The position numbers and the translations under genes are program-made. Under the pieces are notes generated by a model. That model saw only the letters and a list, made by a program, of their open reading frames with translations, did no database searches and was not told the origin of the DNA. This document shows positions 13,569 through 40,353 of a stretch of DNA of 64,000 bases, in pieces. How positions within the stretch are numbered: the stretch's first letter is position 1; every line of letters starts with the position of its first letter. The stretch lies in sequence record SRR20825006_868, one strand, 5' to 3'.

Positions 13569-14660
13569 TCATATGAGGCCAGCCATCGCCGCGACAATTT
13601 CGGGATGGACAATGTCACCATGGGCTACATTGATGCCGGCATGCAGATGTGGATCGGTCTTCACGGCTTGTTCGGTGCCCAAATCGGCCAGCGCCATCGC
13701 ATAGGGCAGGGTGGCGTTTGACAGGGCGATTGTGGATGTTCGGGCAACTGCTGCTGGCATATTGGTAACGCAATAGTGGCAGACACCATCAACATTGTAG
13801 ACGGGTTCGTCATGTGTGGTCGGACGGCTGGTTTCGAAACAGCCGCCTTGATCAATGGCGATATCCACAACCACTGATCCGGGCTTCATCATCGAGATTT
13901 GTTCGGCTGAAACGACCTTTGGCGCAGCCGACCCGGGAAGCAGGACAGCCCCGACCACCAAATCAGCGGTCAGAAGTGAAGCTTCGATCGCAGCCGACGT
14001 GGAGTAAAGACAGCGGGCGCGACCCGCGAAGAATGCGTCCAGTTCCCGAAGACGATCAAGTGAGCGGTCGAGGATGGTGACATTTGCTCCCAGCCCGACG
14101 GCCATTTCCGCCGCATTCCGTCCTGCGACGCCACCTCCGATGACGAGTACCTTGCCTGGAGCGACGCCGGTAACGCCACCCAATAGTGTTCCCGAGCCAC
14201 CTTGAGCTATTTCAAGATACTTGGCGCCAGCCTGAACTGACAAGCGTCCGGCCACTTCACTCATTGGGGTAAGCAAAGGCAAGCGTCCAAACCGGTCGGT
14301 TACTGTTTCATAGGCAATGCAGGTAGCGCCCGACTTCAAAAGTCCGCGGGTCTGTTCAGGGTCTGGTGCCAGATGAAGATAGGTGAACAGCGTGTGTCGT
14401 GGTTGCAGGCGCGCGATCTCAATTGGTTGAGGTTCTTTCACCTTGATGATCATATCGGAAGAGTCGAACAATTCGTCCGCGTTCGTGGAAATTGTGCAGC
14501 CTGCCGATTCATACAGTTCGTCAGAAAACCCAACCATTTCGCCCGCGCCGGTTTCGACGAATACGGAGTGACCCGACCGTACGAGTTCCTGGGCGCCTTG
14601 TGGCGTCAGGCCCACGCGATATTCACGGTTCTTGAGTTCTTTTGGGGTGCCAATACGCAA
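13569..14660 (-). CDS. ald: Alanine dehydrogenase
   Basis: [57 protein letters not shown]. Confidence 0.96.
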
Positions 14661-14704
14661 GTCAACAATCCTTTGAAATGTGGGTCCGATATTTGAAGTA
14701 GGTT

Positions 14705-16024
14705 CTAGAAGTTCGCGACCAGATTTACGCGAAGTCGCTGTTGCCAGTCGTCGGTGGCGAACGGGAGGAGGATTTCATCCTTGAGCCGATACGCATACAG
14801 GCTCGTATTCATCTGGAGGTGCTCGCTGAGTGCGTAGGAGAACGAGTATGCGTGCTGAAGATAGTTGCTGGCATATGGTATGTTATCTTGCGCAAAGGCC
14901 GCGAATACCGAGTCGGCTTCTGCGACATGATAGCCATATCCGAAACTATAGGTTCCTGGCGCGCTCGCCTGTCCAAGCGATGCGGAGACTGAATAGCCTG
15001 TATCATAGTCGTCCGCACCGAGATTGCGAACATATTCAGCCTTGATTTCCAGTGGCCAGCGATCTCCAAAGCCGGAAAAGGACGCTTCCGTCATGATATT
15101 GAGAAGATCAAAATCGGACAGATAAGTGCCTGAACCATCAAGCAAGTTGGTGCGTGTATCACCGGAGTCTGCTGTGCCAACCGCCTCGATTTCATAGTCG
15201 TAATATCCGGCTGCAAATCCGAACTCCCACGCTTCGCTGGCTTTTTGATCGAGGGTGAGCTGAAATCCGGATGCTGTGCTGTCTTGGGCGGCGGTCGAAC
15301 GCTCAATCGGGAAAAACAGCGCGCTACCCCCGATACGAGTCGAACCATTGTCGAGAGCCGCGTAGCGGGCTGCCAAGCCTTGCGGGTTCACATCGCCATC
15401 CCAGACGAGATCCGTGCGCCGGAATGGGTTCGCAAATTTTCCGCCCAGCACGGACAATTTGCCGAACGTCTTGATGCCGTAAACTTGGTCCAGGCTTACC
15501 TCAAGATCGTCATTGAAGTTGGAGAGCGAAACGTCGGTTGAATTTGGATCGTCAGGATCTCCAGTGACGAGCCTGGCACCAAGTTCGAGAGTAGGTGACG
15601 CGGCATATGTGGCCGCGATACGCCCACGCACGACGCCGCGCGCATCATCGCGTTCGTCGCCATCAGACGAGTTATGCTCATATCTGAGGCGCATATCGCC
15701 ACTTATGTTGAGATTCCCAGTCGGGGCGGCAGGACGCGTATCTGCGACCGTGGCTTCTGCCACGTCAACGGGGGACGTGTCCCGGTCGCTTGTTGCAAGC
15801 TTGGCTGGCACATTTGTCGCGTCTTTCAGCATCCGCTCAAGGCGCGCCAGTCGTTCGTCCTGTAAGCGTAGTTTTTCCTGCAGCTCGGCGATGAGAGCTG
15901 CTGGATTATCCGTTGCGGCGTCCTGGGCCAGTGCGGCCATTGGCACCGTCGCAGAAGCGATAGCCATGATAGCGCTGGCTTTCAGGAGGTGAAATTTTGT
16001 CGAAACCGTATTCGGGTAGAACAT
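14705..16024 (-). CDS. Putative outer-membrane porin (Porin_5-like) with N-terminal coiled coil
   Basis: Signal peptide, SGDMRLRYE, DLVWDGDVNPQG, terminal RVNLVANF; start overlaps gabD stop. Confidence 0.75.
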   Translation of the reverse strand: MFYPNTVSTKFHLLKASAIMAIASATVPMAALAQDAATDNPAALIAELQEKLRLQDERLARLERMLKDATNVPAKLATSDRDTSPVDVAEATVADTRPAAPTGNLNISGDMRLRYEHNSSDGDERDDARGVVRGRIAATYAASPTLELGARLVTGDPDDPNSTDVSLSNFNDDLEVSLDQVYGIKTFGKLSVLGGKFANPFRRTDLVWDGDVNPQGLAARYAALDNGSTRIGGSALFFPIERSTAAQDSTASGFQLTLDQKASEAWEFGFAAGYYDYEIEAVGTADSGDTRTNLLDGSGTYLSDFDLLNIMTEASFSGFGDRWPLEIKAEYVRNLGADDYDTGYSVSASLGQASAPGTYSFGYGYHVAEADSVFAAFAQDNIPYASNYLQHAYSFSYALSEHLQMNTSLYAYRLKDEILLPFATDDWQQRLRVNLVANF

Positions 16025-17496
16025 CAGATTCCCCCCATCGCGATATACTTCACATTCAGATAGTCATCGAGGCCGTAGCGAGACCCCTCGCGCCCGATGC
16101 CGGATTCCTTGACGCCTCCGAAAGGTGTTGCCTCTCCTGAGATCGCAATATCGTTCAATCCAACCATGCCGACTTCCAATTGCTCAGCGACACGCCAGGC
16201 GCGCGAAAGCTTTCGGGTCCAGAAATATGCGGCGAGCCCATAAGGCGTATCATTGGCCAATGCGATGGCGTCTTCGTCGTTTTCGAAAACGAGAACCGGC
16301 GCAACTGGGCCAAAAATCTCAGTGTGTGCGATGTCCATATCCGTTGTGACATCGCACAGGATGGTAGGCGGCATGAAATTTCCGACGTCTGAGGAGTGAC
16401 GAGACGTGGACACTGTCGCGCCCTTTTCGACAGCGTCTGCTATCAGAGCCTGAACCTTGTTCTTAGCGGCGGTGTTGATCATTGGACCCATGTCAGAAGA
16501 TGGATCGAGTCCGTCCCCAACATTCATGGCCTCTGCCGCTGCCACGAATTTATCAAGGAATGCGTCCTTGATGGACGTGTGTAATAAAATGCGATTGGCG
16601 CAGATGCATGTTTGTCCAGCATTGCGAAACTTTGCGACCAGCGCGCCTGCAACGGCTGCATCGATGTCTGCATCATCGAACACGATGAGGGGCGCGTTCC
16701 CACCCAGTTCGAGTGACATGCGTTTTACGCTGTCCGCGCTCTGTTGCATGAGCAGTTTCCCCACGCGCGTAGATCCGGTGAAGGAGATCTTGCGAACGAG
16801 TGGATGGCTGGTCAGTGTCTGGGCAACGGGCGCTGGATCTTTCGAAGTGATGACCTGGAAAACGCCGGCTGGGAAACCGGCATCCTCTGCCAGGCATTCC
16901 AGTGCCAGCGCTGACAAGGGCGTTTCATCGGATGGCTTCAGGATGATCACGCACCCGGCGGCCAGTGCAGGCGCAGCCTTGCGGGTTATCATGCCGCTCG
17001 GAAAGTTCCACGGCGTAATGGCGCCGACAATTCCCACGGGCTGCTTGATGACGAGCTGTCGCCGGGAGGACGCGCTGGTCGGTATCACATCACCGTAAGC
17101 GCGTTTGGCCTCTTCAGCGAACCATTCAATATAGCTGGCATTAAACGTCACTTCCCGGCGGGCTTCTGCCAAAGGCTTGCCCTGTTCGAGTGTCAGTATT
17201 TCGCCAAGTTCTTTTTCTGATGCGAGAATAAGGTCATGCCACCGCCGCAGTATCGCTCCGCGTTCTCCCGCCGTCAGCCCGGCCCATGCAACCTGTGCAT
17301 CATTTGCCAGCGCAATCGCTTTTTCCGTTTTCGGCGCGCCCAGATCCGGCACTTTTGCCACAATGGATCCGTCTGCGGGATTGGTCACGGTAAATGATTT
17401 TTCCACAGACGATGCGGCTATGCGCTCCTTCAATCGGTGCAGCAGAGCATTCGACGTCGCTACGGAGTCCGCAGTCGGGACTTGCATGACGGACAT
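16024..17496 (-). CDS. gabD: NAD(P)-dependent succinate/glutarate-semialdehyde dehydrogenase
   Basis: ITPWNFP, SFTGST, LELGGNAP, FRNAGQTCIC, EIFGP, PFGGVKESGIGREG. Confidence 0.92.
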   Translation of the reverse strand: MSVMQVPTADSVATSNALLHRLKERIAASSVEKSFTVTNPADGSIVAKVPDLGAPKTEKAIALANDAQVAWAGLTAGERGAILRRWHDLILASEKELGEILTLEQGKPLAEARREVTFNASYIEWFAEEAKRAYGDVIPTSASSRRQLVIKQPVGIVGAITPWNFPSGMITRKAAPALAAGCVIILKPSDETPLSALALECLAEDAGFPAGVFQVITSKDPAPVAQTLTSHPLVRKISFTGSTRVGKLLMQQSADSVKRMSLELGGNAPLIVFDDADIDAAVAGALVAKFRNAGQTCICANRILLHTSIKDAFLDKFVAAAEAMNVGDGLDPSSDMGPMINTAAKNKVQALIADAVEKGATVSTSRHSSDVGNFMPPTILCDVTTDMDIAHTEIFGPVAPVLVFENDEDAIALANDTPYGLAAYFWTRKLSRAWRVAEQLEVGMVGLNDIAISGEATPFGGVKESGIGREGSRYGLDDYLNVKYIAMGGI

Positions 17497-17497
17497 G

Positions 17498-18871
17498 TCA
17501 TGCGACTCCCAAGCGGGCAGCCGTTTCCGAAAGGCCGGCAGACGCGATGTCGATCAGTTCGTCTATTTCAGCATGCGTGATGGTAAGCGGAGGGCAGATC
17601 ACCATTGCCTGTCCGACGGCACGCATGATCAGGCCTTTATCGAGGCATATGTCACGACAGATATTCGCCGCATTGTCTTCAGCCGTGAAGTGTTCGCGTG
17701 CTTCCCGTGACTTGATGAGCTGAAGACCGGCAATCAGGCCAGCTCCGCGTACTTCACCAATGATTGCATGTTCATTAAATAGCTGCTGGAGCCGTGCGTG
17801 CAGATAGGGGCCTAAATCATTCTTTACGCGATCCACCAAGCCTTCGCGTTCGATAATGTTGATATTGGCATGCGCAACCGCGCAAGCGACGGGGTGTCCG
17901 GAATAAGTGTAGCCATGAGAGATGGGACCACCTTCATTGATGGTCTCAAATATCTCATCGCTGAAAGCCACCGCAGAAATCGGCAGATAGCCGGATGACA
18001 TGCCTTTGGCCATCGGCATGATGTCAGGCTGGACACCATAGTGCTGGCATCCAAACCATTCCCCCAGACGTCCAAAACCACAGATGACCTCGTCTGATAC
18101 CAGAAGGATATCATGCTTGCGGCAGATCTTCTGAATCTCGGGCCAGTAATTGGGAGGTGGGTCGATGACGCCACCAGCGCCCTGAATTGGTTCGCCGATG
18201 AATGCGGCGATATTGTCTGCTCCAACTTCGAGAATTTTTTCTTCCAATGCATGCGCTGCCCGGAGACCAAACTCCTCGGGGCTCATATTCCCTCCGTGAG
18301 CGTACCAGTGGGGTTCCATGATGTGCTCGAAGCCAGGAAGCATGGATGATCCCATATCATGCATGTGCTTCATGCCGCCGAGGCTGGTCGCGGCAAGCGT
18401 GCTGCCATGATATCCGAGATGACGGCCAATGAATTTGTGTTTCTTTGGCTTGCCGCGGACGTGCCAATAGTGGCGTGCCATGCGGATTACGGTGTCATTC
18501 GCCTCGGATCCGGAATTGGCGAAAAAGAAATGGTTGAGGTTCCCCGGTGCGATCTCTGACAGTTTTTGCGCAAGTTCGATCTGGCTAGGCGTCGAGCTTT
18601 GAAAGAACGAATTGTAGAATGGCAATTGCTCCATCTGCGCGGTCGCAACATCAACCAATTCCTGGCGACCATACCCGACATTCACACACCAAAGGCCAGC
18701 CATCCCATCTAGGATCTTGTTGTTGTCGCTGTCATAAACATAACAGCCGTCTGCGCTCGTTATGACGCGCACGCCACGTTCTGCGAGTGTTTTTGGATCG
18801 CAGAACGGGTGTATGTGGTGAGAGGCGTCCATGGCCTGCCACTGGGCTGTATTCCGATGCGCGATCGCCAT
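17498..18871 (-). CDS. Class III omega-amine/diamine:pyruvate aminotransferase (SpuC-like)
   Basis: LDGMAGLWCVNVGYG, NSGSEAND, YHGST, GEPIQGAGG, DEVICGFGR, PLP lysine in MAKGMSSGY, HGYTYSGHP. Confidence 0.92.
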   Translation of the reverse strand: MAIAHRNTAQWQAMDASHHIHPFCDPKTLAERGVRVITSADGCYVYDSDNNKILDGMAGLWCVNVGYGRQELVDVATAQMEQLPFYNSFFQSSTPSQIELAQKLSEIAPGNLNHFFFANSGSEANDTVIRMARHYWHVRGKPKKHKFIGRHLGYHGSTLAATSLGGMKHMHDMGSSMLPGFEHIMEPHWYAHGGNMSPEEFGLRAAHALEEKILEVGADNIAAFIGEPIQGAGGVIDPPPNYWPEIQKICRKHDILLVSDEVICGFGRLGEWFGCQHYGVQPDIMPMAKGMSSGYLPISAVAFSDEIFETINEGGPISHGYTYSGHPVACAVAHANINIIEREGLVDRVKNDLGPYLHARLQQLFNEHAIIGEVRGAGLIAGLQLIKSREAREHFTAEDNAANICRDICLDKGLIMRAVGQAMVICPPLTITHAEIDELIDIASAGLSETAARLGVA

Positions 18872-18949
18872 TGTGCGTCCCTTTCAATTGTTTGAACCCA
18901 TGTTGGGCTCAGGCGGTGGAAGGGAGAAGATGACTAAACCGATTGGAGT

Positions 18950-18966
18950 GGTGCGGTTTCAGCACC
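18950..18966. promoter_or_regulatory. LysR-type box 1 (GGTGC-N7-GCACC)
   Basis: ggtgcggtttcagcacc; GATGA half-site at 18929 (-21). Confidence 0.8.
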
Positions 18967-18992
18967 GATGGTGCATGACCAATGCGATGTGA

Positions 18993-19637
18993 CTATTTTG
19001 GCCAAAGACTGCGCATGTGCCGCGCGATTTCTTGATCCTGAACGTTGCTGTGAGTTTCGAGGGCGTCGACAACCCGCTTCTGATCCGCAAGCGGATGGGT
19101 CTGACTCAACTTTGTCACCGCATCGATATTTGAAATGGTGATCCGGAAGGAGCGGATACGGGGAACCAGGCTGTCGACTTTGCCATTGGGTGCGTGCTCC
19201 ATACGCCACGCGGATTGGGACGCCGCTTCGCTCTGGGCAATCGTGGTCCGCATGATCTCCAGTTGAGCCTCGGCATCATCAATCGGATGAAGCGTCCCTC
19301 GTACTTGCGCAGCAATGTAGTTCCAGGTCGGAACGGTTGGCTGGTCCTTGTACCAGCTTGCCGAGATATACGCGTTCGGGCCATGAAAGGTCGCAAGCGC
19401 TTTTTGGCCGGCGGCCAGGGTGGTGGCGTGTGGATTGTTCCGTGCCATGTGCCCGACCAGCTCAGTGTGACCAGTTGATGTTGTCACCACGTACATGGGG
19501 ACCGAGGTCGCATAGGGCAGGTCGCCGCAGCTGGTGATTATCTGGCCAAAGGGGTAGGCGGCTATGATCGAGAGCGGGTCAGACGCCCGATAAGGTTTCG
19601 GCACATACATGTGCCACGTCTCATTTGCATCGGTCAT
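18993..19637 (-). CDS. PaiB family split-barrel FMN/heme-binding protein
   Basis: MYVPKPY, GHMARNNPH, GPNAYISASWY, VPTWNY, KLSQ; RBS AAGGGA before ATG 19637. Confidence 0.88.
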   Translation of the reverse strand: MTDANETWHMYVPKPYRASDPLSIIAAYPFGQIITSCGDLPYATSVPMYVVTTSTGHTELVGHMARNNPHATTLAAGQKALATFHGPNAYISASWYKDQPTVPTWNYIAAQVRGTLHPIDDAEAQLEIMRTTIAQSEAASQSAWRMEHAPNGKVDSLVPRIRSFRITISNIDAVTKLSQTHPLADQKRVVDALETHSNVQDQEIARHMRSLWPK

Positions 19638-19714
19638 ACTATATCCCTTGTATTTTCTGGGGTCAGTCTTCGCGTCGACAGACAGAAATGTGAGGCGCGA
19701 AATGTATAACAGCT

Positions 19715-19731
19715 GGTGCGGCAGGGGCACC
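19715..19731. promoter_or_regulatory. LysR-type box 2, divergent paiB / serine hydrolase promoter
   Basis: ggtgcggcaggggcacc; GGCGC at -21 (19694) and GCACC at +21 (19748). Confidence 0.8.
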
Positions 19732-19837
19732 AGAATACCTTTGCTTGGCACCTGAGTCTGCCGGTATCGAAATGTATTGTCACCACAAAGCGCGCGCCAC
19801 CTCCTGATTGTCGCTGCGCTAACCTAGGAGACTATTC

Positions 19838-20986
19838 GTGACAGCATTCTCTCAGCGCGAACCGCAGTTCGGTGACATCGTGACGGCTTATGCTGGCAAA
19901 TTGATGCCAGATGTTCAGATGCATACGTTCAGCCATACACACGAGATTTTCCCCACTCGCACCATCAAGGCTGGTGACACGGTGTCTGCCTTGCCATATG
20001 CGGCGACGCCGCTGAGCGATATGCCTATTCAGGCGAATGGTAAATCCTACGATCTGTTCGACTACGTATCCCAGAACCGCCTCGTCGGACTGTTGGCGAT
20101 CAAAGATGGGCATATCGTTCACGAATACTATGATCAGGGCATCGGGCCGGATACGCGATGGATGTCGATGTCCATGGCCAAGTCAGTATCGACAACGCTG
20201 GTTGGTACGGCGATCAAGGATGGCTTCATCGACAGCGTTGATGATCAACTCGTGAAGTACCTGCCCGAACTGTCCGGTAGTGGCTACGATGGGGTCTCCA
20301 TCAAGCATTTGCTCCAGATGACGTCAGGTGTGAAGTGGGACGACACGCACACGGTGGCGGAGTCTGAGCGCCGCACCATGCTGGATCTCCAGGTTGGGCA
20401 AAAACCGGGTGAAATCATGAAATTCATGGCCTCTTTGCCCCGCATTGCCGAGCCGGGAACGGTCTGGAACTATAGCACGGGCGAGACCCATGTTGTGGGT
20501 GCACTGGTCAAAGCGGCAACCGGGAAGTGGCTGTCTGACTATTGTTCCGAAACCATGTGGTCGCGTCTTGGCATGCAGGCAGACGCCGCATGGTGGCTGG
20601 AGTCACCGGACGGGCTTGAGGTTGCCGGCAGTGGTATCTGCGCGAACTTGCATGACTATGCCCGGTTAGGACTCTTCGCGCTGAATGGCGGGGTGATCGA
20701 CGGGGAATCGGTCGTACCGGAAGGTTGGTTCACGGAAGCTACTGAGCCACGTATGGCGGGATCCGACCCATTGAACTACGGGTATATGTGGTGGCCCGTG
20801 CCTGACCGCGACGGTGATTTTAAGGAAGGCGCATTCAGCGCACGGGGAATCTTCGGGCAATATATCTACGTCAATCCCAGTCGTGGAATTGTGCTGACCG
20901 TTCTGAGTTGCCGGTCGAAGCCAAAATTCTCGGAAGCGATCCTGGATAATGATTTCTTCAATGCCGCTGTGGACGCGCTGAGCTAG
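19838..20986 (+). CDS. Serine hydrolase, beta-lactamase class C fold, NylB (6-aminohexanoate-dimer hydrolase)-like
   Basis: SxxK in SMAKS, WNYST, YGYMWW, ARGIFGQ; no signal peptide; RBS AGGAGA. Confidence 0.88.
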   Translation: MTAFSQREPQFGDIVTAYAGKLMPDVQMHTFSHTHEIFPTRTIKAGDTVSALPYAATPLSDMPIQANGKSYDLFDYVSQNRLVGLLAIKDGHIVHEYYDQGIGPDTRWMSMSMAKSVSTTLVGTAIKDGFIDSVDDQLVKYLPELSGSGYDGVSIKHLLQMTSGVKWDDTHTVAESERRTMLDLQVGQKPGEIMKFMASLPRIAEPGTVWNYSTGETHVVGALVKAATGKWLSDYCSETMWSRLGMQADAAWWLESPDGLEVAGSGICANLHDYARLGLFALNGGVIDGESVVPEGWFTEATEPRMAGSDPLNYGYMWWPVPDRDGDFKEGAFSARGIFGQYIYVNPSRGIVLTVLSCRSKPKFSEAILDNDFFNAAVDALS

Positions 20987-21969
20987 CTGCCTGGCTTGAA
21001 CTGAGGCGTGTCCTTGGCGATCGTGTTGGTCAGCCATTGACGGAATTTTCGCAAGCTTGGTTCGTTCCAACGATCGTGACGGGCGATCAAAACATAGTCG
21101 CCCCGCCTTGCTGGAAAAGCCGGATTATCCTTGCCGATCCAGACCAGGTCGCCTCTTGTAAGGTGCTTTTCGGCGAGCAAGGGGTTGGTCAGGGCAATGC
21201 CCCGTCCGTGGCGGGACGCATCGCTCGTCAAGTTGCCCTGCCACAGGCGAGGACCTTTGAGCCCATCGGCACAATCGACGCCAAGAGAGTTCAGCCAGAT
21301 TTCCCAAGTTTCGGTTGTATTCTCATGAAGCAACTGATGATTGAGCAGGTCTTCAGGTTTGTGGATTTCAGGGGCGCTCTCGAGATAGTCCGGGCTTGCT
21401 ACCGGAATGATAGGAGATTGTGCGATCACCTGGCTTCTCAGGTGGGACGGAAGCTCATCAAGATCTTCGTAGGATGCCCAGTAGCGAATATCAGCAGTGG
21501 CCTCATGGGAGAGAAAGTCCGGAGCACTGACGGACGGCTTGAGCTCGATTTCCACACCTTGGTTTGCGCGCTCAAGCGATGCCAAACGGCGCGACAGCCA
21601 TTGCTGTGCAAATCCGGGTGTACTCCATATCAGAAGCTGGTGATGGATGCCCTGATTGAGCAGGTCCAGTGTGGCGTGCGCCACCATATCAAGGGCTTGA
21701 GCAATTGAGCGATGATAGTCCTTGCCAGCTTCGGTCAGGATCAGGCCCGTCGGAACGCGTTCCACGAGGGTTATTCCGACCCATTCCTCAAGAGCCCGCA
21801 AATGTCGGCTTAGAACTGCATGGTCCCGGTCCAGCCATTTTGCCGCTTTTCGAACGCCGCCGAGCCGGGCGATGGCGTCGAACGCCCGCAATCCTTCAAA
21901 TGGTGGAAGCGCTTTTCTGAGTGGGGGCTGTTGCCCGGTCTTGATCAGGTCGTCCTTACGGTCGGCCAT
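20983..21969 (-). CDS. LysR family transcriptional regulator (GcvA/AmpR-like)
   Basis: LPPFEGLRAFDAIARLG..AA..L...VLSRHLRALEEWVG..L..R...LTEAG; substrate-binding domain; start could extend to 22092. Confidence 0.92.
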   Translation of the reverse strand: MADRKDDLIKTGQQPPLRKALPPFEGLRAFDAIARLGGVRKAAKWLDRDHAVLSRHLRALEEWVGITLVERVPTGLILTEAGKDYHRSIAQALDMVAHATLDLLNQGIHHQLLIWSTPGFAQQWLSRRLASLERANQGVEIELKPSVSAPDFLSHEATADIRYWASYEDLDELPSHLRSQVIAQSPIIPVASPDYLESAPEIHKPEDLLNHQLLHENTTETWEIWLNSLGVDCADGLKGPRLWQGNLTSDASRHGRGIALTNPLLAEKHLTRGDLVWIGKDNPAFPARRGDYVLIARHDRWNEPSLRKFRQWLTNTIAKDTPQFKPGS

Positions 21970-22092
21970 TCTGGTTTCCCTATCATGGTGTGTTTGTCGC
22001 GGGATTGACCTTCCGGCGGGTTCGTAAGTCAAGCTTTGCGCTGATTCCAGTGGGACCATGTGTTTGTCGCGCCTGATTTCTTGGCGTGTCAC

Positions 22093-23266: not shown

Positions 23267-23283
23267 GGTGCGCTTGGCGCACC
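23267..23283. promoter_or_regulatory. LysR-type box 3, divergent pepSY / amidohydrolase promoter
   Basis: ggtgcgcttggcgcacc; GATGC at 23246 (-21). Confidence 0.8.
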
Positions 23284-31415: not shown

Positions 31416-31500
31416 GTGTTCTCCCGCTCGCTTTTGCTACATTGCCTTCGAGTAAGACGGACAAACAAAAATTTGTGCAGATGCTAAAAGTGAATTGCAT

Positions 31501-31517
31501 GGTGCGGAATACGCACC
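31501..31517. promoter_or_regulatory. LysR-type box 4
   Basis: ggtgcggaatacgcacc; GATGC at 31480 (-21). Confidence 0.8.
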
Positions 31518-31607
31518 TCTGGTGGCTTGGCTGGGACAGAGACCAGTTTTGAATGCTCGGAGGCGTTGCAAAACTGAGATCGCCTCAAACGAGTATTGCT
31601 TCGCCTG

Positions 31608-32858
31608 TCAGCGGGGTGTGACAACCGCCGTTCGAGCACCGACCTGGCCTTCCGAACGCAGTCGTTCAACTGTATCCGGAGAATAACCAAGCACAGTGGT
31701 CAACACGTTGAGCGTGTCTTGTCCAAGGGTCGGTGCAGCAGATCTATATGTTACGGGTGTGTGGCTGAGCCGGATTGGGCAAGCGATTCCGGGCACGGTT
31801 CCGAGGGTAGGGTGTGGCAGGGTGATGCGTGAGCCCCGCGCCCGAACTTGAGCGTTTTCAAACACATCAGACATTCTGTTGACAGGTCCTGCTGGAACTT
31901 TGCTGTTCTGTAGCAGGTTCATCCAGTGTTCGGTTGACCGCGTTCGCAACTTTTCAGTCAATAGGGAGGTCAGGGATATCCGGTTGGCCACGCGTGCACC
32001 ATTGGTTGCGAATCGATGGTCGCGGAGCAATTCGGCACATCCAATTCGTTCGCAAAGGTCGATAAACTGAACATCGTTTCCGACCGCCAGGACAATGTGT
32101 CCGTCGAGGGTACTGAACACGTCATAGGGTACAATACTTGGATGAGCATTACCCATCCGTTCCGGATTTTCTCCTGTTGAGAGAAACCCCTGTGACTGAT
32201 TGGCCATTGCGGCGACGAGGCAATCAAGCAGCGAGATATCGATAATCTGCCCTTGGCCAGTCCCCTCCCGATGCAGAAGTGCCGCCTGAATGGCATTGGC
32301 TGCATAAAGACCAGTCACGATATCGACCAATGCGACACCGACCTTCAGCGGTCCGCCTCCCGGCTCATCATCTGGAACGCCCGTGACGCTCATCAGACCG
32401 CCCATTGCCTGAATCAACAGGTCGTATCCTGGCTGGTCGGCATAGGGGCCCGTGTGGCCAAAGCCTGTTATGGAACAATAGATAAGACGGGGGTTGATAA
32501 GTCTGAGAGAGGCGGCATCCAATCCGTACTTTTCCAACGTACCCGTCTTGAAGTTTTCGACGAGGACGTCGCTTGAAGCCGACAGCTCACGAATTACACT
32601 CTGGCCGGCCTCCGTCGAAATGTCGACACAGACCGATTTCTTGTTGCGATTGGCACTTAAAAAGTATGAGGCTTCACGGGTATCGCTATCCTCACCGAAT
32701 TGAAAAGGCGGCCCCCAGCTTCGTGTGTCATCCCCACGGACTGGATGCTCGATCTTGATGATTTCAGCTCCCAGGTCTCCCAGGAGCTGGGTCGCCCATG
32801 GCCCGGCAAGAACTCTGCTCAGGTCCAGAACTCGCAAACCGTCAAGTGCGTACGCCAT
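31608..32858 (-). CDS. CaiB/BaiF class III CoA-transferase (probable succinyl-CoA:glutarate CoA-transferase)
   Basis: LDLSRVLAGP, GDDTR, NRNKKS, VENFK, GYDLLIQ; coupled to gcdH. Confidence 0.9.
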   Translation of the reverse strand: MAYALDGLRVLDLSRVLAGPWATQLLGDLGAEIIKIEHPVRGDDTRSWGPPFQFGEDSDTREASYFLSANRNKKSVCVDISTEAGQSVIRELSASSDVLVENFKTGTLEKYGLDAASLRLINPRLIYCSITGFGHTGPYADQPGYDLLIQAMGGLMSVTGVPDDEPGGGPLKVGVALVDIVTGLYAANAIQAALLHREGTGQGQIIDISLLDCLVAAMANQSQGFLSTGENPERMGNAHPSIVPYDVFSTLDGHIVLAVGNDVQFIDLCERIGCAELLRDHRFATNGARVANRISLTSLLTEKLRTRSTEHWMNLLQNSKVPAGPVNRMSDVFENAQVRARGSRITLPHPTLGTVPGIACPIRLSHTPVTYRSAAPTLGQDTLNVLTTVLGYSPDTVERLRSEGQVGARTAVVTPR

Positions 32859-32859
32859 A

Positions 32860-34038
32860 TCAATTGAACGCCGCAATTCCGGTTTGTGCCCGGCCAAGGA
32901 TCAATGCATGAACGTCGTGGGTGCCCTCGTACGTGTTGACCGCTTCGAGGTTGCACATGTGGCGCATCACATGGAATTCGTCCGATACGCCGTTGCCACC
33001 ATGCATGTCGCGTGCTGCCCGCGCGATATCAAGGGCTTTTCCGGTACTGTTTCGTTTGATCAAGGAAATCATTTCGGGCTTGGCAGAGTTGGTTTCGAAC
33101 AGTCGCCCGACCTTTAGGCATGCTTGGAGTCCTATCGAGATTTCCGTTTGCATCTCGGCCAGTTTCTTTTGAATGAGCTGGTTCGCCGCAAGTGGTCGCC
33201 CGAACTGGTTCCGATCCATTGTGTATGAGCGCGAAGACATCCAGCAGCTACGCGCGGCGCCAAGTGCTCCCCAAGCAATTCCGAACCGGGCCTTGTTGAG
33301 ACATCCGAATGGACCAGACAAACCTTGTGCATTGGGGAGCAAATGGTCATGCGGCACGAACACGTCGTCCATGACGATTTCGCCCGTGATTGATGCGCGC
33401 AGGGCGAGCTTTCCCTGGATCTCCGGAGTGGAAAGGCCCTCCATACCACGCTCGAGCACAAAACCGCGGATCGTGCCATCCAGCTTCGCCCATACGACGA
33501 GCACGTCAGCAATAGGGCTGTTCGTGATCCACATCTTCGCACCGTTCAGGCGATACCCACCCTCTACAGCAACGGCGCGAGATGACATATTGCCAGGGTC
33601 GGAACCGTGGTCGGGTTCTGTGAGCCCAAAACACCCGACCAATTCGCCCGACACAAGCCCCGGCAACCAGCGCTGGCGTTGTTCTTCGGTCCCATAAGCG
33701 TGAATGGGATGTATCACCAAAGACGACTGTACGCTGAGAGCGGACCGATAGCCGGAGTCTACGGCCTCTACTTCGTGAGAAACCAATCCGTAGGCGACGT
33801 GACTTACTCCGGCTCCACCATACTCTTCAGGCAATGTCGGACCGAGCAGGCCCAGAGACCCCATGTCCCTCAGGATTTCTCGGTCGAATTGTGCGTTGCG
33901 ATTGGCCTCGACAATACCCGGCAGGAGGCGCTTCTCAGCGAAGTCGTGCGCGGTTCGTTGCACCGAGCGTTCATCCTCGGTCAGATCGGAGGCGAGCGAA
34001 AGGGCGTCGGCCCAGTCAAAGGCAGAATACTTGGTCAT
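32860..34038 (-). CDS. gcdH: Glutaryl-CoA dehydrogenase
   Basis: [56 protein letters not shown]. Confidence 0.94.
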
Positions 34039-34070
34039 CTGAATTCCTGATAGATAGAATGAAGTTGGGC

Positions 34071-35507
34071 CTACTCGTGTCTGACACGGTGTCCGATCTG
34101 TTGCCATCGCCCGGGGTTCACGATCACGGTGTCGCCGGTGAATTTGACGCTGAATGGGTAGCGGCCGCGGTCTACAGTGAAAACATCCTGCATTGCAGCT
34201 AGCAGTCTTCGTGGTCCGGCTTTGGTAATCTGAAACACGTCGCGCTCTCCGCTAGCCTCCGCCACCAGGTTTCCGTCTTCCAAACGTACTGTGAGCGATG
34301 CGAAATCGCTGAATTTGTATGTACCGACATATTCCCGGAGTGTCGAAGATGGAATGACCAGGTAGGGGTCAGCCTTGGGCTGAGTGACCTGTTGGGGTGG
34401 AACAGCAGCCAGAATGGCATCCCACATAAGTTCAGATGCGGCCACGCCGATTTCCATGCTGGGCAGGTTCACGCCCGGCCCAGCTTCAACTTCATTGGTT
34501 GAAACAGCGTACAGGACATCGCCATCGAATTCACTTGCAAAGGGTTGAATGCCACGCGCCATGGATGTGTGAACTTGAACAGCGAGGCGTTGAAGCTCTG
34601 CAGGGGACATCGTGCGATTGGTGACCACGACACTGATCGTCGTGTTCTTCCGCTCAAATTCCTGAGTGTCCTTATCGCCATTCCAGTCCGGCTGCAGACT
34701 GGCAGGTGCGGCCCCCATGAGGTCGGAAGCTTTCAGGGTTTCGGGCCAGTTTGTCCCTTTATGGCAGGCGACGACATTGCCATCCCGGTCGGTAACGGCA
34801 CCCAAAGCGTTGACGACGGTGAAGACGGCAATCTTTACGTCGCCGACCTGCCGAAAGGCGCTGCCTTGTCCGGATCGTGCGTTGCACCCGAATATCCCGC
34901 CATTCATTGCCGAACGCCCTGCGCCAAACGCGCCGTTCGGAAACACCCCCGGCTTTGCAGCGCGCAAGGCAAGTTGCGCGAGGCGTTTGTCCGGATAGAT
35001 TTCGTTTAAGCGGCGCCCTCCAAAATCATAAATGATTGATCCAACAACAAGGCCGACATTGTTCCAATGGCCGCCCCGATAGCCATCATCCAATAGTGCG
35101 GTGTTTACTGCCGTGGCGGCCTCCAAACCGTACCAAGAACCACCGGACAGAACGATCGCATCCAGTTCAGGCTGCGTATAGCCAAGTTTGAGATACTCTG
35201 CGTTCACAGTGCCCGGACCACCTCCGCGCGCATCCACGGCGGCGTTTACCTTCTTGCCAAATTTCAGAACGGTCAGGCCCGTCGGCCCATCTTCATACTG
35301 CCCAGTACCGATCTCCAGCATAGGCCAATCAAACTTCAGAGCACTCTCTCCCTCGAAGCCATCATTGATCAAGGCTGGAAGGGTACTTTGGCCGTCAGGT
35401 TCTGCGGAAGCGTTTAGCGCACTCGTGGCGCAGGCCGCCAAGGTGAGAACGGAGATTGCAGCACCAATCGCGCGCAGGCCACGGAAATTGTCTCTCTTGA
35501 TGCGCAT
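34071..35507 (-). CDS. Exported Ntn-hydrolase, DmpA/P1 (S58) family, NylC-like, with extra C-terminal domain
   Basis: Lipobox [39 protein letters not shown] autocleavage site, RGIQPF..DGD. Confidence 0.88.
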
Positions 35508-35586
35508 GGTGATCCTCGATTGCTGGCTTTGAAAATAGATTACTTATGCAACTGAATGGCGGACAGATGCGATTTGGGAAGAGTGT

Positions 35587-35603
35587 GGTGCGAAAACCGC
35601 ACC
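35587..35603. promoter_or_regulatory. LysR-type box 5
   Basis: ggtgcgaaaaccgcacc; GATGC at 35566 (-21). Confidence 0.8.
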
Positions 35604-35605
35604 TG

Positions 35606-36466
35606 CTAGCTGGCTTGGTCAACATCCTGTGCAACGCGAAATCCGACTGTGAAATAGCCTTGCGATTTTGGACCTGGTAGTCGGTAGCGCGGGGACAAGT
35701 AGTCGCCAGCATCACCATAAGAGCCGCCGCGTATTACGTGTTTTCCGGGCGTTGTGCATATCGTGCGCGCAGAGCCATCCAGCGGCGCACCGTCATAGGT
35801 TTCCTGATGGCAGTCTGCTTGCCACTCCCACACATTGCCACGCATGTCGTGGATGCCGAACCGGTCTGCCGGGAAGCTGGCGACGGGCGCGGTTTCCATC
35901 CACTGATCGCGTCCTTCCACGACGCCGCCACAGCAATCGACAAGGCCAATATTGGCTTCGTCATGACCGACATGTCCATCATCACCTTCGATGCCGCCGG
36001 TTGAAGCCACGTATTCCCATTCGGCCTCCGAAGGCAGCCGAAAGGCCTCACCCGTCTTTTCGCTCAGCCAAGCTGTGTAAGCTTGCGTGTCGTCCCAACT
36101 GACGCAGACCACGGGGTGATCGTCGTCTTGCGCAAATCCGGGGTGTTCCCAATTCCTATCAGGCGCAATGTGCCAGGACTGGTTGTCTGTATAGATATTG
36201 CAGATGCCTTCCGACACGTAGCCGGAATCCTCAACGAATGATCGAAAGTCGCCAACGGTCACTTCGGTGACAGAGAAAGCAAACGGACTCTCAATGCTGA
36301 CTTCATGACGTGGGCCGTCGATCTCTCCATACCCATAATCAACCGTTTCGCCCATGAAGAAGCTGGCTGCTTGAACTGTTGCCATGTCCGGTCTGACGCT
36401 TGTTTCGGTATTATTGGAGCATGCCATAAGTGCGAGACTTGCTACGATCAGCGCTGAATACTTCAT
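35606..36466 (-). CDS. FGE-sulfatase/SUMF1/PvdO family lipoprotein
   Basis: Lipobox LMAC, HPVVCVSW, RLPSEAEWEY, DMRGNVWEW, RGGS, GFRV. Confidence 0.9.
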   Translation of the reverse strand: MKYSALIVASLALMACSNNTETSVRPDMATVQAASFFMGETVDYGYGEIDGPRHEVSIESPFAFSVTEVTVGDFRSFVEDSGYVSEGICNIYTDNQSWHIAPDRNWEHPGFAQDDDHPVVCVSWDDTQAYTAWLSEKTGEAFRLPSEAEWEYVASTGGIEGDDGHVGHDEANIGLVDCCGGVVEGRDQWMETAPVASFPADRFGIHDMRGNVWEWQADCHQETYDGAPLDGSARTICTTPGKHVIRGGSYGDAGDYLSPRYRLPGPKSQGYFTVGFRVAQDVDQAS

Positions 36467-36468
36467 GT

Positions 36469-39400
36469 CTAGTCTCCTGACCATGTCCATTTCCAGTCGA
36501 TTCCGTTTGTGGGTTGAGTCTCCCAGTAGAATTCCTTCCGAGGACGGTCATAGTTGCCGATCTCATTCATTGTGTGCGCATCATAAAGGCGCCCATTGAC
36601 CATCGTGTAGCGGACGCTGTTCGCATTGCGGATGTCGACGGTAGGATCCTTGTCCAGGATGATGATGTCGGCCAGTTTACCAGCTTTGATGGAGCCGAGC
36701 TGGTGATCAAGTCCATAGGTCTTCGCGCCGTTTAATGTTGCAGCACGCAATATATCCAGCGGGGCCATGCCGCTTTCAGCAAACAGCAACATTTCCCAAT
36801 GCATGGCGATGCCCGATGCTTGCCCGTGCGAACCGACATTTACAGTAGCGCCAGCTTCGGCAAGTTTGGTGAGTGATCTGCCGACGGACCGGAAGCCGAT
36901 ATCATAGATTTCATCGGAAACGTGAATCGAATGCATGCAGCGCACGTGCAATGGGGCGCCACCTGGGCCTGCAATCGGATTATATGCATTGTTCACATCC
37001 GGAATGAAAGTCCTGACCTTGTCCTCCTTCCAGGGATCTTCATTCTCGTAGATGAAATTCTCGCCAAACAACTCCCCGAAAGTCACGATCAAGGTTGGTG
37101 TCATCGACACATCAGAAGCGGCAATGAGCTTTTGAAGATCCTCGTAATAAGTGGCCACGGGGAGGTTGTGTTCGAGATTTGTGTGCCCGTCGATAATCAT
37201 ACCAATATTGGTATAGAACTGACCGGCACCCTCCCCATCAACCATGTATCCGTATTCACGAGCGGCTTGAAGCAACCGCTGACGTTGCGCCCGAGTTGAT
37301 AGTTTGTAGCTTTTGAGGATCGATGGCCCAAGCGCGGTACGTCGTTGGAGGACATTGCGTGCATCCTCGATCGAAGCAAGCGGATGATAAACTCCGTCCG
37401 TACGACCTTCGAGGCCATGCACTACCTGGCCCGACTTCAACCAGCGCGGCCCTACGAGGTCACCCGTAAGCGTCATCTCACCACTCTCATATGACATGAG
37501 ATCATTGGAGTAGGGGTCAAAATTCGTAGTAATGCCATAAGCAAGCGCTGCGAGCCGAGTAGGGTGCTGTTGCGGCATGGTGCCAGAGCGGAAACAGCAT
37601 TCAATATGGCCGTGGGCATCAAACAGGCCCGGCATCAGTGTCTTGCCCTTGATGTCTATCCGGGTCGCGTTCCGGGGTATCTTGACCTTGCTACGCGGGC
37701 CAACGGCCGTAATGCGATTGCCTTCAACAATGACGATGCCGTTCTCGATGACTTCGCCCTCAATCGGAATGATCTTGCCACCTACAAAGGCAATAATGCC
37801 TTCAGGTATGTCGGTCTGCATCTCCATTTGTATGGGTGTAGACTGGATCGCAGCTGACTGGGTGGCAGGCTCAACCGACAGGATTTCCGCTCCCATGGTC
37901 CAATAAAGTCTGGATGCGTCCGCAGACCAGCTCATCTCATATCCACCAGTCTCGCTGAGGAGACGGGCTGAGGAGTTGTCTTCCATCGACAGAACAATGG
38001 GCTCGTCGCGGATGTCGAACGGCATGACGTAGGGGCGATTGTGATACTTGAAGCCCAGCCAGGCCTGATCGGGGCTGAGGCTGAGATTGCGTATGTCCGC
38101 GGTCTCAGCGATGGCGTGCTCTTGGGGATTGCCGCCGTCCAGATTGACGCTCATCAGAACGGAGGCTCGTCGGTCGTAGAAGGCGGGTTCGGCGAACAGG
38201 AACAAGCGGCTGTCATCGGCAGAGAAGCCGACCAAGCTGGAAGACGGTGAAAGGAACCTGGAAGTTCCTCCGGACGCATCTACGATATAGATGCCTGTTT
38301 CCGGACCGGCCGCATTGAACGACGGATCCGGCTCCATGATGCGATACGCGATCAAGTCTCCAGAGTTGGAAAACCGTGGTTCTCGGATCACGCCTCGACT
38401 TTCAACGATAGTCCTTTCCTCTCCCGTAGCCGCATTGCGGATGACCAACCGACTGCCGGTCTGATCCGTCCAATTCGTATAGACAATCTTCTGTCCGTCC
38501 GGAGACCAGGCAGGGTCGGATTCGGCTGCATCGGAGGTGGTGAGGCGCGCCGGTCTGGCTGGCGCGTCCATCTTGATTTTCCATAGCTTGCCGACCGCGC
38601 GGAACAGCATGGTCTGTCCGTTCGGCTGAGGCGCCAGCTGCCGCAGCGTGCGGATGGTGACTTGTTCAGGCGCAAGGTCCTGTTTCACGCGAATGGCTGG
38701 CTGAAGCTCGTGCCGCGAGGTCAGGCTGAAAGGAATTTCTTCTGCAGAGGCAGAGTGCGTATCAATGCGAACAATCTTTCCCTTTGCCCAGATAGCAATT
38801 GTTCGGTTGTCCGGAAACCAGTCGAAAGATGGATAGTAGTGTTCCTGTGGCAGGTAATCTCCGTGCAGGTCTCGCCCGAGCTCGTCATAGATTGGCTGTT
38901 CGTACCCGGTTTCCAGGTCTTTGACGAACAGCACGGTCTTTGCGCCCAGACGGCGAATGAAAGCCACTGAATTGCCATCGGGAGAGACTTGCGGAGTCGA
39001 TGCACCACCGAAGCCGGAAATGGCACGACGCTTTTTCCCCGTCTCCAGATCCAGCTTGTTGATGGCGAAGTTCTTCAGGCCGGTATTCATGTAGACATAG
39101 TGATCACCGCCAATACGTTCCGTATAATAAAGATACCGGCCATCGGGCGAAAAACGTGGCTCCTGAACATCCTTGCCACTCTGCGGGGGAGAAACGATGA
39201 TCTCATCGGACGTGCCATCGAGGCTGTAGAGGTGTATTTCAGAATTTCGGACACGAAAGATGTCCGAATAGGTTTTCACTGCTGCAATGGATTTCCCGTC
39301 AGCGGCCCAAGCCGGACCAGCTATCATGGCGTGCGATTCCTGCGTGACCTGGCGGGCTTCACTGCCATCGACACGCGATACCCAGACATTGTCGGCACCA

Positions 39401-39708: not shown

Positions 39709-39779
39709 TTTTGTCTCTCCTACTGACGTCAGGTTAGCATCTCCGTCAGTTCAGGGGTGATGCAATCTGTCGGTGACCT

Positions 39780-39796
39780 GGTGCTCATGATGCACC
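39780..39796. promoter_or_regulatory. LysR-type box 6
   Basis: ggtgctcatgatgcacc; GATGC at 39759 (-21). Confidence 0.8.
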
Positions 39797-39870
39797 GATC
39801 CTAGCGCAATACGCAGTGCCTGTGCGCTTTGGTTGCAGATACATTCCGTGCTTCACCTCAGGAGATTTTC

Positions 39871-40353
39871 ATGAACCAAACAGTCAATACGGTGTGCGGC
39901 GTTGCCATGTTCGGCCTTGCCATCGGCACAACAGGGTGCACCAGCCTGCCGACGTCGGACGTGCACGCAACAGCCCCGCAAATCGAGGCAGAATTGATGG
40001 CAGTTGATCGCGCTTATGAAGCCTACAATCTCGCGCATGGCTATGAAGCAGCGTCTCTGAAGTTTGTGGATTTTGAAAAAGGTTTCATGATCGAAGCAGG
40101 TGAGGGGTTTCTGACAGGCCAGGCGGCTATCATGGCCGAGCGACAGTTGGACATGGTTCCGTCGCCCGTTCATTGGCAGCCTGAAGGCGCTATGGGTGCG
40201 GCGAGTGGTAATTTGGGAATCACTTGGGGAAGTTTCGTCGTCGATGGCGATCCCGATACGACGGGTGATTATGTAACCGTCTGGCGGAAAGTGAACGGCG
40301 AGTGGAAGATCGTAACTGATACGGCAGTCGACGATCCTGACCCAGCTGATTAA
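39871..40353 (+). CDS. NTF2/DUF4440-like lipoprotein
   Basis: RBS AGGAG, lipobox TTGC, SGNLGITWG, GDYVTVWRK..GEWKIV.D. Confidence 0.75.
   Translation: MNQTVNTVCGVAMFGLAIGTTGCTSLPTSDVHATAPQIEAELMAVDRAYEAYNLAHGYEAASLKFVDFEKGFMIEAGEGFLTGQAAIMAERQLDMVPSPVHWQPEGAMGAASGNLGITWGSFVVDGDPDTTGDYVTVWRKVNGEWKIVTDTAVDDPDPAD

Follow-up and report, generated by a model that had tools for sequence, protein, structure and literature searches.

In the nylon-oligomer pathway of Arthrobacter/Paenarthrobacter KI72, an endo-hydrolase (NylC) and a dimer hydrolase (NylB) are joined by a transaminase (NylD) and a dehydrogenase (NylE); in Pseudomonas, glutarate is served by the gcdR-gcdHG operon, with SpuC, DavT/DavD, GcdG and GcdH making up a route from cadaverine and 5-aminovalerate. 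Elements of both are found side by side in the DNA considered here, a 64,000-nucleotide stretch from sequence record SRR20825006_868 (‘the window’ hereafter), in which a 27 kb block of marine Hyphomonas DNA (positions 13569–40353) holds 20 genes, the NylC-like protein being 98% identical to its counterpart in Hyphomonas sp. L-53-1-40. We are confident that this block is a real, conserved and co-regulated uptake-and-catabolism system; the best single reading of its protein families and gene neighbourhoods is that it would act on a hydroxamate of the desferrioxamine class, a reading to which we give a probability of about 0.5. Families were assigned by Pfam and NCBIfam domain searches plus sequence searches against solved structures (PDB), compartments were read from protein N-termini, and comparisons were made with the nearest genome (G001), with a second genome (G034) and with that of Niveispirillum irakense (G062). 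All 13 gene families that a first-pass annotation had placed in this interval were recovered at the positions given for them, and are joined by a GcvA-like LysR regulator, an FGE-sulfatase/PvdO-like lipoprotein and a beta-helix lipoprotein.

Set against the KI72 pathway, the block presents a NylC-fold endo-amidase, an S12 hydrolase of the dimer type, an omega-transaminase and a semialdehyde dehydrogenase in the same chemical order. Its amidase keeps the N-T-T autocleavage motif of NylC but is exported as a lipoprotein and has, at its C-terminus, a further domain of ~105 residues, and its S12 enzyme is nearer to PIB-1 than to NylB; to these are added a TonB receptor, a POT carrier, PD40-amidohydrolases, a PF04299 protein, a PepSY_TM protein, GcdH and a LysR regulon of its own, the whole being spread in marine and soil Proteobacteria. 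With the glutarate/cadaverine route of Pseudomonas it shares a LysR-type regulator, a family-III CoA-transferase, GcdH, a SpuC-class transaminase and a GabD/DavD-type dehydrogenase; here, however, the genes lie within a regulon for uptake and hydrolysis, in one operon with the NylC-type gene, and stand under a GcvA-like regulator that falls below every NCBIfam cut-off. For the envelope components, the parallel is with nutrient loci linked to TonB. The pairing of a TonB receptor with a PepSY_TM protein recalls FoxA/FoxB of P. aeruginosa (6z8a, 7abw), but the likeness to FoxB is of the order of 1e-5 and covers one helix, regulation appears to be of the LysR type with no Fur-type box found in the promoters, and the receptor is no FoxA orthologue (matches of the 56-bit class): that assignment is ruled out by a score of 41 bits against a cut-off of 1300 for the FoxA model. 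The assembly is probably a substrate-induced, TonB-linked catabolic regulon made of known folds in an undescribed composition, the pathway itself being probably undescribed; the first-pass annotation knew of no described cluster of this composition, and a literature search, with most subscription journals beyond its reach, turned up no description of these genes.

Ferrioxamines, which are hydroxamate siderophores, are widespread in soil and in the sea (PMC5812494, PMC11800396); for the bacterial breakdown of desferrioxamine, the papers cited date from the 1990s (reference list of PMC11800396). Azospirillum (Niveispirillum) irakense is reported to cleave the amide bonds of desferrioxamine (PMC6270104 and PMC12364333, both citing Winkelmann 1999), with linear bisucaberin B given as a degradation product (PMC6270104)—a product that fits endo-cleavage at plain amide bonds. 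In the accessible text of the 2025 papers, degradation is treated as an activity, without genes (PMC12364333, PMC11800396); likewise, for both N. irakense and the soil isolate of Castignetti and co-workers, genes are undescribed in the portions available of the accounts cited (PMC11800396, PMC12364333, PMC6270104). We infer that this activity belongs with the present cluster, and tentatively propose that the block supplies the genes so far missing for the breakdown of desferrioxamine-class siderophores by bacteria.

That the block is a unit is seen most clearly from its conservation. Relatives of the NylC-type (S58) protein were sought in one genome per species, giving 287; the 80 top-ranking loci, with flanks of at most 10 kb on either side, were then searched for partners with the window proteins (tblastn, E <=1e-10, at least half of the query aligned); since 20 of the 80 are shorter than the full flank, partner counts are lower bounds. 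Three or more of seven core partners lie within 10 kb of S58 in 51 of the 80 loci, and the earlier annotation, which had set homologues ‘never co-occurring’ as its refutation test beforehand, is borne out to this extent: they do co-occur. Ranked by frequency, the partners are the TonB receptor (62/80), POT (47), LysR (44), S12 (42), transaminase (40), PF04299 (29), aldehyde dehydrogenase (25), PD40-amidohydrolase (24), beta-helix protein (23), GcdH (15), PepSY_TM (14), FGE-like protein (11), CoA-transferase (10), and Ald and Porin_5 (2 each), as against none for the flanking-gene control, Tex. Where S12, POT and transaminase are all present (26 loci), the receptor accompanies them in 26, LysR in 21 and PF04299 in 19. 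The named records cover at least 14 alphaproteobacterial genera (hosts including Hyphomonadaceae, Sphingomonadales, Niveispirillum, Kordiimonas, Asticcacaulis and Parvibaculum) and at least 7 gammaproteobacterial ones (Steroidobacteraceae, Microbulbifer, Parahaliea, Pseudoxanthomonas and Dasania), with partner identities of 45–69% across the two classes of Proteobacteria. Clustering of the open reading frames (ORFs) of the 80 loci returns, as the most widespread families, exactly those of the window. In G034, where S58 is 81% identical, the whole block (Ald and Porin_5 included) is in the same order, with palindromes at matching intergenic places. Saying this, the S58 orthologue occurs in just 2 of 37 same-genus genomes, making the cluster accessory, and S58 stands alone in 15 of the 80 loci, among them all seven records named Inquilinus and that of Mycobacterium sp. 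KBS0706. Further families near S58 that the window lacks were also considered and rejected: of ten representatives scanned, six gave no Pfam match and are likely to be antisense reading frames of G+C-rich sequence, and the others—an AS-family amidase (4 loci), two porins and a pyridine-nucleotide disulphide oxidoreductase (7 loci)—leave the reading unchanged.

The second line of evidence is a palindrome, GGTGC-N7-GCACC, of which the 64 kb hold seven exact copies, all between 18950 and 39796, against an expectation of 0.10; none of 100 shuffles reaches seven. With one mismatch allowed, seven are found against 2.85 expected and the excess is gone, so that the sites are exact. Six copies precede nine neighbouring start codons by 72–139 nucleotides (nt), the distance being 72–92 nt for six of these codons (the DUF4440 ORF lies at 33 nt), and five of these six promoters show a CATCT-like element on the gene side of the palindrome at a spacing of exactly 17 nt, read in the minus-strand gene direction. 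The remaining copy, at 27290, is probably not a promoter site and may be either chance or an internal site. Within the palindrome, the core TGCG-N5-CGCA contains a T-N11-A box, the usual recognition form of LysR proteins, and it is probable that the LysR regulator of the block binds here; the helix-turn-helix of that protein begins at residue 66, so its true start probably lies downstream of 22092. Genome-wide, G001 has 11 copies with 7 in the cluster and G034 has 8 with 6 in the cluster, the reversed pattern occurring 5 and 6 times, respectively. Across the 80 loci there are 96 copies in 50 loci (2–20 hits for each of five control patterns), and the palindrome follows the regulator, being present in 37 of 44 loci that have a LysR homologue, in 13 of 36 that lack one, and in 1 of the 15 in which S58 is alone. 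In 19 loci from distant taxa it sits no more than 400 nt upstream of, or 60 nt past, the start of the S58 match, often with the CATCT element. The co-regulation that had been claimed from the first reading thus finds support in a single palindrome with a LysR box before six promoters, concentrated in the cluster genome-wide and kept before S58 in these 19 distant loci.

Working from the ‘left’ of the block, the minus-strand genes of 13569–19751 are Ald, Porin_5, the GabD-type dehydrogenase, the SpuC-class transaminase and PF04299, beyond which lie the S12 hydrolase (plus strand), PepSY_TM followed in transcription by the GcvA-like LysR (minus strand), and a plus-strand run of the 1084-residue PD40-amidohydrolase, the POT carrier and the beta-helix lipoprotein. 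From 39708 down to 29280 the minus strand carries, in transcription order, the second PD40-amidohydrolase, the FGE/PvdO-like gene, S58, GcdH, the family-III CoA-transferase and the TonB receptor; the final gene, on the plus strand, is the DUF4440-like lipoprotein (39829–40353). Lipoprotein-type signals are found on S58, the first amidohydrolase, the FGE-like protein and the beta-helix protein, and a signal peptide on the second amidohydrolase, with no signal at the N-termini of either the S12 hydrolase or PF04299. These predicted locations agree with the order of events previously put forward: import, periplasmic cleavage, import by POT, and cytoplasmic cleavage.

Against solved structures, the S58 protein matches NylC (5xyt, 6.6e-57) and Nyl12 (9.5e-52), then an L-aminopeptidase/D-esterase (1.7e-19), with chains named DmpA or BapA absent at E <=1e-3. 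Its autocleavage motif, N288-T289-T290, aligns to the GNTT of NylC and is invariant in 15/15 aligned homologues. The C-terminal domain (residues ~370–478; a weak DUF3471 match), absent from the 355-residue NylC, is conserved with invariant residues in 15 distant homologues; the family is one of exported proteins of 450–490 residues, 1910 of them at E <=1e-20 among 8000 scored candidates. The name ‘NylC-like’ given in the first-pass annotation is confirmed, as is, at the level of the family, its ‘NylB-like’: the S12 fold and the catalytic residues are present (S112-M-A-K115, the SxxK motif, and Y212), but the closest characterised relative is PIB-1 (8rlj, 9.7e-90) and not NylB (2.5e-27 to 2e-24). 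In our scheme the enzyme would work in the manner of NylB, yet by sequence it falls in the PIB-1 subgroup. The first exported amidohydrolase has weak matches to phenylurea and molinate hydrolases, to prolidases and to the Arg carboxypeptidase Cc2672, and the second is 43–44% identical to the G034 orthologue of the first. Finally, a 754-residue protein from an assembled public run (P0089) has an FGE-sulfatase/PvdO-like domain fused to a NylC-like (S58) domain, suggesting that the FGE-like and S58 lipoproteins of the window act together.

What turns this set of aliphatic amidases towards a hydroxamate is the PF04299 protein, for which the name ‘FMN-binding/PaiB regulator’ is obsolete. All members of the family assayed for activity (PipS, KtzT, LnzB, SbPZS and NohD) are reported to activate an N-hydroxylamine on haem (PMC12576811, PMC13274692), binding it via its nitrogen (PMC12576811): piperazate synthases convert N5-OH-ornithine with formation of an N–N bond and dehydrate other hydroxylamines too, and NohD dehydrates N5-OH-ornithine with release of ammonia, its native function being one that, to its authors, ‘remains obscure’ (PMC12576811). 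The window protein is of the same fold family, its best structure matches being the piperazate synthase SbPZS (9qlk, 5e-30), NohD (9oqs, 2e-24) and PipS (9ebk, 4.5e-22), and it retains four of four key residues: His and Asn (GHMARNNPH), Thr (PTWNY) and Lys (KLSQ), known from SbPZS as His-61 (the haem ligand), Asn-66 and Thr-102 together with Lys-173, and from NohD as T98 and K167 (PMC12576811, PMC13274692). Its context is catabolic where theirs is biosynthetic, and sequence tests assign it to neither the NohD nor the PipS subgroup. At two further positions, HP2 (Ala of GHMA) and AS2 (Val of VPTW), which set dehydratase-like members apart from those that form an N–N bond, piperazate synthases carry Asn and Ala; Ala and Val are described as common to most of the family (PMC12576811), which excludes a piperazate synthase and leaves a dehydratase unproven. 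Alignments to solved homologues begin at M48 of the 252-residue ORF, probably the true start, placing the gene at 18993–19610 and the palindrome at 19715 in intergenic DNA. An N-hydroxylamine enzyme conserved in the company of a C5 route, an omega-transaminase and aliphatic amidases would point to a substrate holding N-hydroxy-cadaverine or N-hydroxy-putrescine, that is, to a hydroxamate of the desferrioxamine type.

The C5 route itself had been proposed from the first reading and fares well. From its orthologue-level likeness to solved enzymes (3gnc, 3eom and 3d6b at 1e-168; human GCDH at 1e-163 to 9e-164; the next class, ACX4, at 3e-69), the window GcdH is a genuine one, and would set the carbon unit at C5. 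Within the genus, GcdH (E <=1e-100) was found in 2 of 37 genomes, the same two that carry the S58 orthologue, and the block gene is the sole GcdH-level match in G001 and in G034; outside the genus, 17 of 24 genomes from the same order have a GcdH. Its confinement in the genus to cluster-bearing genomes indicates that the C5 route belongs to the island and not to housekeeping. Earlier in the proposed route, the transaminase, of class-III fold, matches a ‘putrescine aminotransferase’ (6gwi, 2.3e-181) and a ‘polyamine:pyruvate transaminase’ (9j4z, 4e-170), and the adjoining Ald suggests pyruvate as amino acceptor, which Ald would restore.

A second, independent pointer comes from N. irakense, the documented degrader. 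Strain DSM 11586 is among the 80 best loci, with S58, S12, POT, transaminase and receptor in one array. Another contig (G062 contig 7; L096 14933–19299, L097 911–1522) holds a LysR gene, a ProP-like MFS symporter, an aldehyde dehydrogenase and PF04299, with a divergent GabT-type 2-oxoglutarate transaminase, a smaller, second module that could import and use free monomers. The siderophore synthetase IucA/IucC, searched for in G001, G034 and G062, was found in none of them, which fits consumers rather than producers. Together, the chemistry of the PF04299 family and the presence of core genes in a desferrioxamine degrader favour a hydroxamate.

We therefore picture the following, conditional at each step. 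The GcvA-like LysR would bind GGTGC-N7-GCACC before six operons, making one substrate-induced regulon, which would import a natural aliphatic oligoamide above porin size and degrade it to central metabolism; the likeliest substrates would be hydroxamate siderophores built from N-hydroxy-diamines and succinate, namely desferrioxamines, bisucaberin and putrebactin. The TonB-dependent receptor would bring the molecule into the periplasm, where the PepSY_TM protein may remove Fe(III) reductively, and the NylC-type lipoprotein would cleave the plain amide bonds, aided by the two PD40-amidohydrolases. Zwitterionic fragments, N-hydroxy-N-succinyl-cadaverine for example, would be taken in by the POT carrier, and the cytoplasmic S12 hydrolase would then release succinate and N-hydroxycadaverine. 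The PF04299 haem protein would convert the N-hydroxylamine by dehydration to an imine, and hence to 5-aminopentanal and ammonia, giving directly an amino-aldehyde that the neighbouring dehydrogenase would accept. Aldehyde dehydrogenase and SpuC-type transaminase, with Ald recycling pyruvate, would carry this through 5-aminovalerate to glutarate, and CoA-transferase and GcdH from there through glutaryl-CoA to crotonyl-CoA. The purpose would be supply of carbon and nitrogen instead of, or alongside, iron.

Several observations weigh against a desferrioxamine-class substrate. Among the domain and structure matches of the block enzymes there is no known hydroxamate-bond hydrolase; PIB-1, the nearest solved relative of the S12 enzyme, is described as a carbapenem-hydrolysing beta-lactamase, and for the amidohydrolases the closest enzymes that have been characterised are peptidases and hydrolases of xenobiotics. 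The PF04299 protein is about equally far from all solved members of its family (5e-30 to 4.5e-22); moreover, the Thr/Lys pair is reported to be kept across most of PF04299, and Geobacillus PaiB to bind haem with no known activity (PMC12576811, PMC13274692), so that membership of the family is no proof of an N-hydroxylamine substrate. At the outer membrane, the receptor falls below the cut-off for siderophore receptors (best PDB match FyuA, 1.4e-24; FoxA structure, 1.7e-9), as do those of N. irakense (154 bits) and Steroidobacter; with all three below it, this feature speaks neither for nor against a siderophore. Just 15 of the 80 loci have GcdH within 10 kb of S58, and just 14 have PepSY_TM, itself weakly FoxB-like. 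The ‘FoxB-type’ link of the first-pass annotation is accordingly a weak one (7abw, 9.7e-6, with the last helix alone aligned), whilst its four hydrophobic segments, with a His ahead of every one (H10, H125, H182 and H312), would fit a two-haem reductase that could yield the iron-free form in the periplasm. The stretches of N. irakense examined hold no exact copy of the palindrome. Lastly, Microbulbifer sp. CNSA002 is reported to have failed to degrade desferrioxamine B while degrading amphibactins (PMC11800396), and other Microbulbifer species carry the core (L058, L067).

The same regulon could serve a non-hydroxylated substrate, an oligoamide of omega-amino acids or diamines (natural nylon-like oligomers, oligomers of 5-aminovalerate or gamma-aminobutyrate, isopeptides of the epsilon-poly-lysine type, acyl-polyamines), with PF04299 and PepSY_TM accessory or unrelated. 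NylC- and NylB-type hydrolases are known from omega-amino-acid oligomers only, and 5-aminovalerate or cadaverine could be handled by the transaminase, aldehyde dehydrogenase, CoA-transferase and GcdH with nothing further; the scarcity of PepSY_TM near S58 (14/80) also suits such a substrate. No abundant natural oligomer of this sort is known to us to require a TonB receptor, however (no search was aimed at the question), and lysine polymers would need lysine-to-5-aminovalerate enzymes, none of which domain searches find in the block. Whilst polyamide-4 hydrolases are reported to have the S12 fold (PMC13269358), PF04299 belongs to the core (19 of 26 full-core loci) with known chemistry only on N-hydroxylamines, and the cluster is found in a documented desferrioxamine degrader; we consider a non-hydroxylated substrate unlikely.

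A peptidic substrate would be either a siderophore of N5-acyl-N5-hydroxy-ornithine (of the amphibactin, marinobactin or ferrichrome type) or an unusual D-, beta- or Lys/Arg-rich peptide, on which S58, S12 and the PD40-amidohydrolases would act as peptidases, POT importing di- and tripeptides. Among members of the S58 and S12 families are D- and beta-aminopeptidases, and the S12 enzyme matches the alkaline D-peptidase 4y7p (7.5e-8); peptides are what POT carriers import; and the amidohydrolases bear a likeness to Xaa-Pro dipeptidases and to Arg/Lys carboxypeptidases. The assays of NohD and of piperazate synthases used N5-OH-ornithine (PMC12576811), and some Microbulbifer strains are reported to degrade amphibactins via a secreted enzyme >10 kDa (PMC11800396), two Microbulbifer species carrying the core; the authors of that study, for their part, found no candidate protease matching the pattern of degraders (PMC11800396). 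Against a peptidic substrate, S58 is far nearer to NylC than to the L-aminopeptidase/D-esterase, with no DmpA or BapA chain at E <=1e-3, and a SpuC-type transaminase, a GabD-type dehydrogenase, a glutarate-type CoA-transferase and GcdH, the last travelling with the island in the genus, would be superfluous for ornithine or peptide products. This, too, we think improbable.

That the genes are accidental neighbours or a loose island, and the palindrome a repeat without regulatory meaning, might be read from the 2/37 genomes with an S58 orthologue, the copy within coding sequence (27290) and the 15/80 loci with S58 alone, but is excluded in practice by the palindrome and linkage evidence: the palindrome is enriched, positioned 72–139 nt before start codons with a second fixed element, retained ahead of S58 in taxa far apart and follows the LysR gene, and the linkage spans two Proteobacteria classes at partner identities of 45–69%, with the domain fusion P0089 besides.

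Table 1. Genes and palindromes of the block, in window coordinates.
Feature	Position	Strand	Evidence and remarks
Ald, alanine dehydrogenase	13569..14660	-	TIGR00518, 480 bits (cut-off 392); last gene of transaminase operon
Porin_5 outer-membrane porin	14705..16024	-	PF16930, 3.9e-20
GabD/DavD-type succinate- or glutarate-semialdehyde dehydrogenase	16024..17496	-	TIGR01780, 643.8 bits (cut-off 646.35); E. coli GabD 3jz4, 4.3e-165
SpuC-class omega-transaminase	17498..18871	-	PRK07480, 739 bits (cut-off 510)
Palindrome 1, GGTGCGGTTTCAGCACC	18950..18966		79 nt upstream of transaminase start
PF04299 protein, candidate haem-dependent N-hydroxylamine dehydratase	18993..19610	-	PF04299, 9.8e-46; 252-residue ORF extends to 19751
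Palindrome 2	19715..19731		Between PF04299 (105 nt to M48) and S12 (107 nt); conserved in G001 and G034
Cytoplasmic S12 serine hydrolase, NylB/PIB-1 type	19838..20986	+	PF00144, 2.2e-39
GcvA-like LysR-type regulator	20983..22092	-	PF00126 (HTH_1) and PF03466; PRK11139, 189 bits, below cut-off 288
PepSY_TM membrane protein, candidate periplasm-facing ferric reductase	22093..23175	-	PF03929, 5e-36
Palindrome 3	23267..23283		Between PepSY_TM-LysR and amidohydrolase-POT-beta-helix operon
Exported PD40 beta-propeller and amidohydrolase, 1084 residues	23422..26676	+	PF07676, PF01979, PF07969; lipoprotein-like N-terminus
POT/PTR2 proton-coupled importer	26711..28150	+	PF00854, 6.6e-44; TIGR00924, 243 bits (cut-off 130)
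Seventh palindrome	27290..27306		Within POT coding sequence; without CATCT element; kept in G001, not in G034
Right-handed beta-helix lipoprotein	28150..29073	+	PF13229, 5e-11; lipobox VVAC
TonB-dependent outer-membrane receptor	29280..31415	-	Plug and barrel; best NCBIfam match TIGR01783, 147 bits, below cut-off 223.5
Palindrome 4	31501..31517		86 nt upstream of receptor start
Family-III CoA-transferase, succinate-glutarate type	31608..32897	-	PF02515, 3.9e-131; best NCBIfam match NF052585, 488 bits, below cut-off 750
GcdH, glutaryl-CoA dehydrogenase	32860..34107	-	Solved GcdHs, 1e-171 to 1e-164
NylC-type N-terminal-nucleophile amidase (S58), exported lipoprotein	34071..35507	-	PF03576 (S58), 1e-24; lipobox LAAC
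Palindrome 5	35587..35603		80 nt upstream of S58 start
FGE-sulfatase/PvdO-like lipoprotein	35606..36490	-	PF03781, 2e-47; PvdO model, 152 bits, below cut-off 500
Second exported PD40 and amidohydrolase, 1079 residues	36469..39708	-	Domain searches; signal peptide
Palindrome 6	39780..39796		72 nt upstream of second amidohydrolase
DUF4440-like lipoprotein, peripheral member	39829..40353	+	PF14534, 1.3e-4, below cut-off

At the edge of the block, the DUF4440-like gene is seen in 4 of the 80 loci, in Hyphomonadaceae only. Beyond it, a GNAT acetyltransferase (40470–41219, minus strand), without a palindrome, is syntenic only in four Hyphomonadaceae loci and G034, with 47–49% identity outside the nearest strain; a role in the pathway, such as acetylation of a diamine, is conceivable. 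No Fur box matching at 13 or more of 19 positions is present in the six promoters (best 9–11/19, by an E. coli-type 19-nt consensus from which that of Hyphomonadaceae may differ), a result that counts, weakly, towards the hydroxamate reading. The best Fur-box-like match of the window (15/19 to that consensus) lies instead at 4721–4739, between a DUF4198 gene (3906–4703, minus strand) and an ApbE and DUF2271 fusion (4823–6349, plus strand) that is followed by a TonB-C-domain protein (6377–7198); this region is perhaps a module for uptake under iron control, with no bearing on the block. Contigs at least 95% alike from four marine RNA libraries (three studies) cover 26–29 of the 30 bins of 19801–39800; as such contigs are blind to level, strand and induction, and DNA carry-over is possible, the coverage is compatible with transcription in the sea and is not used here as evidence.

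If a desferrioxamine-class substrate is correct, the NylC/NylB ‘nylonase’ folds would natively cut natural, nylon-5,4-like hydroxamate oligoamides, which would explain the origin of the nylon-oligomer hydrolases, and PF04299 dehydratases such as NohD would natively strip the N-hydroxy nitrogen from siderophore-derived N-hydroxy-diamines; NylC/NylB, the PIB-1 subgroup of S12 and PF04299, families known mainly from unnatural or obscure substrates, would each gain a natural role. The exported amidases are new and may be of use on polyamides. Because ferrioxamines are widespread in soil and sea, their destroyers would affect the availability of iron, and a conserved, recognisable gene set would let such consumers of siderophores be spotted in genomes and metatranscriptomes.

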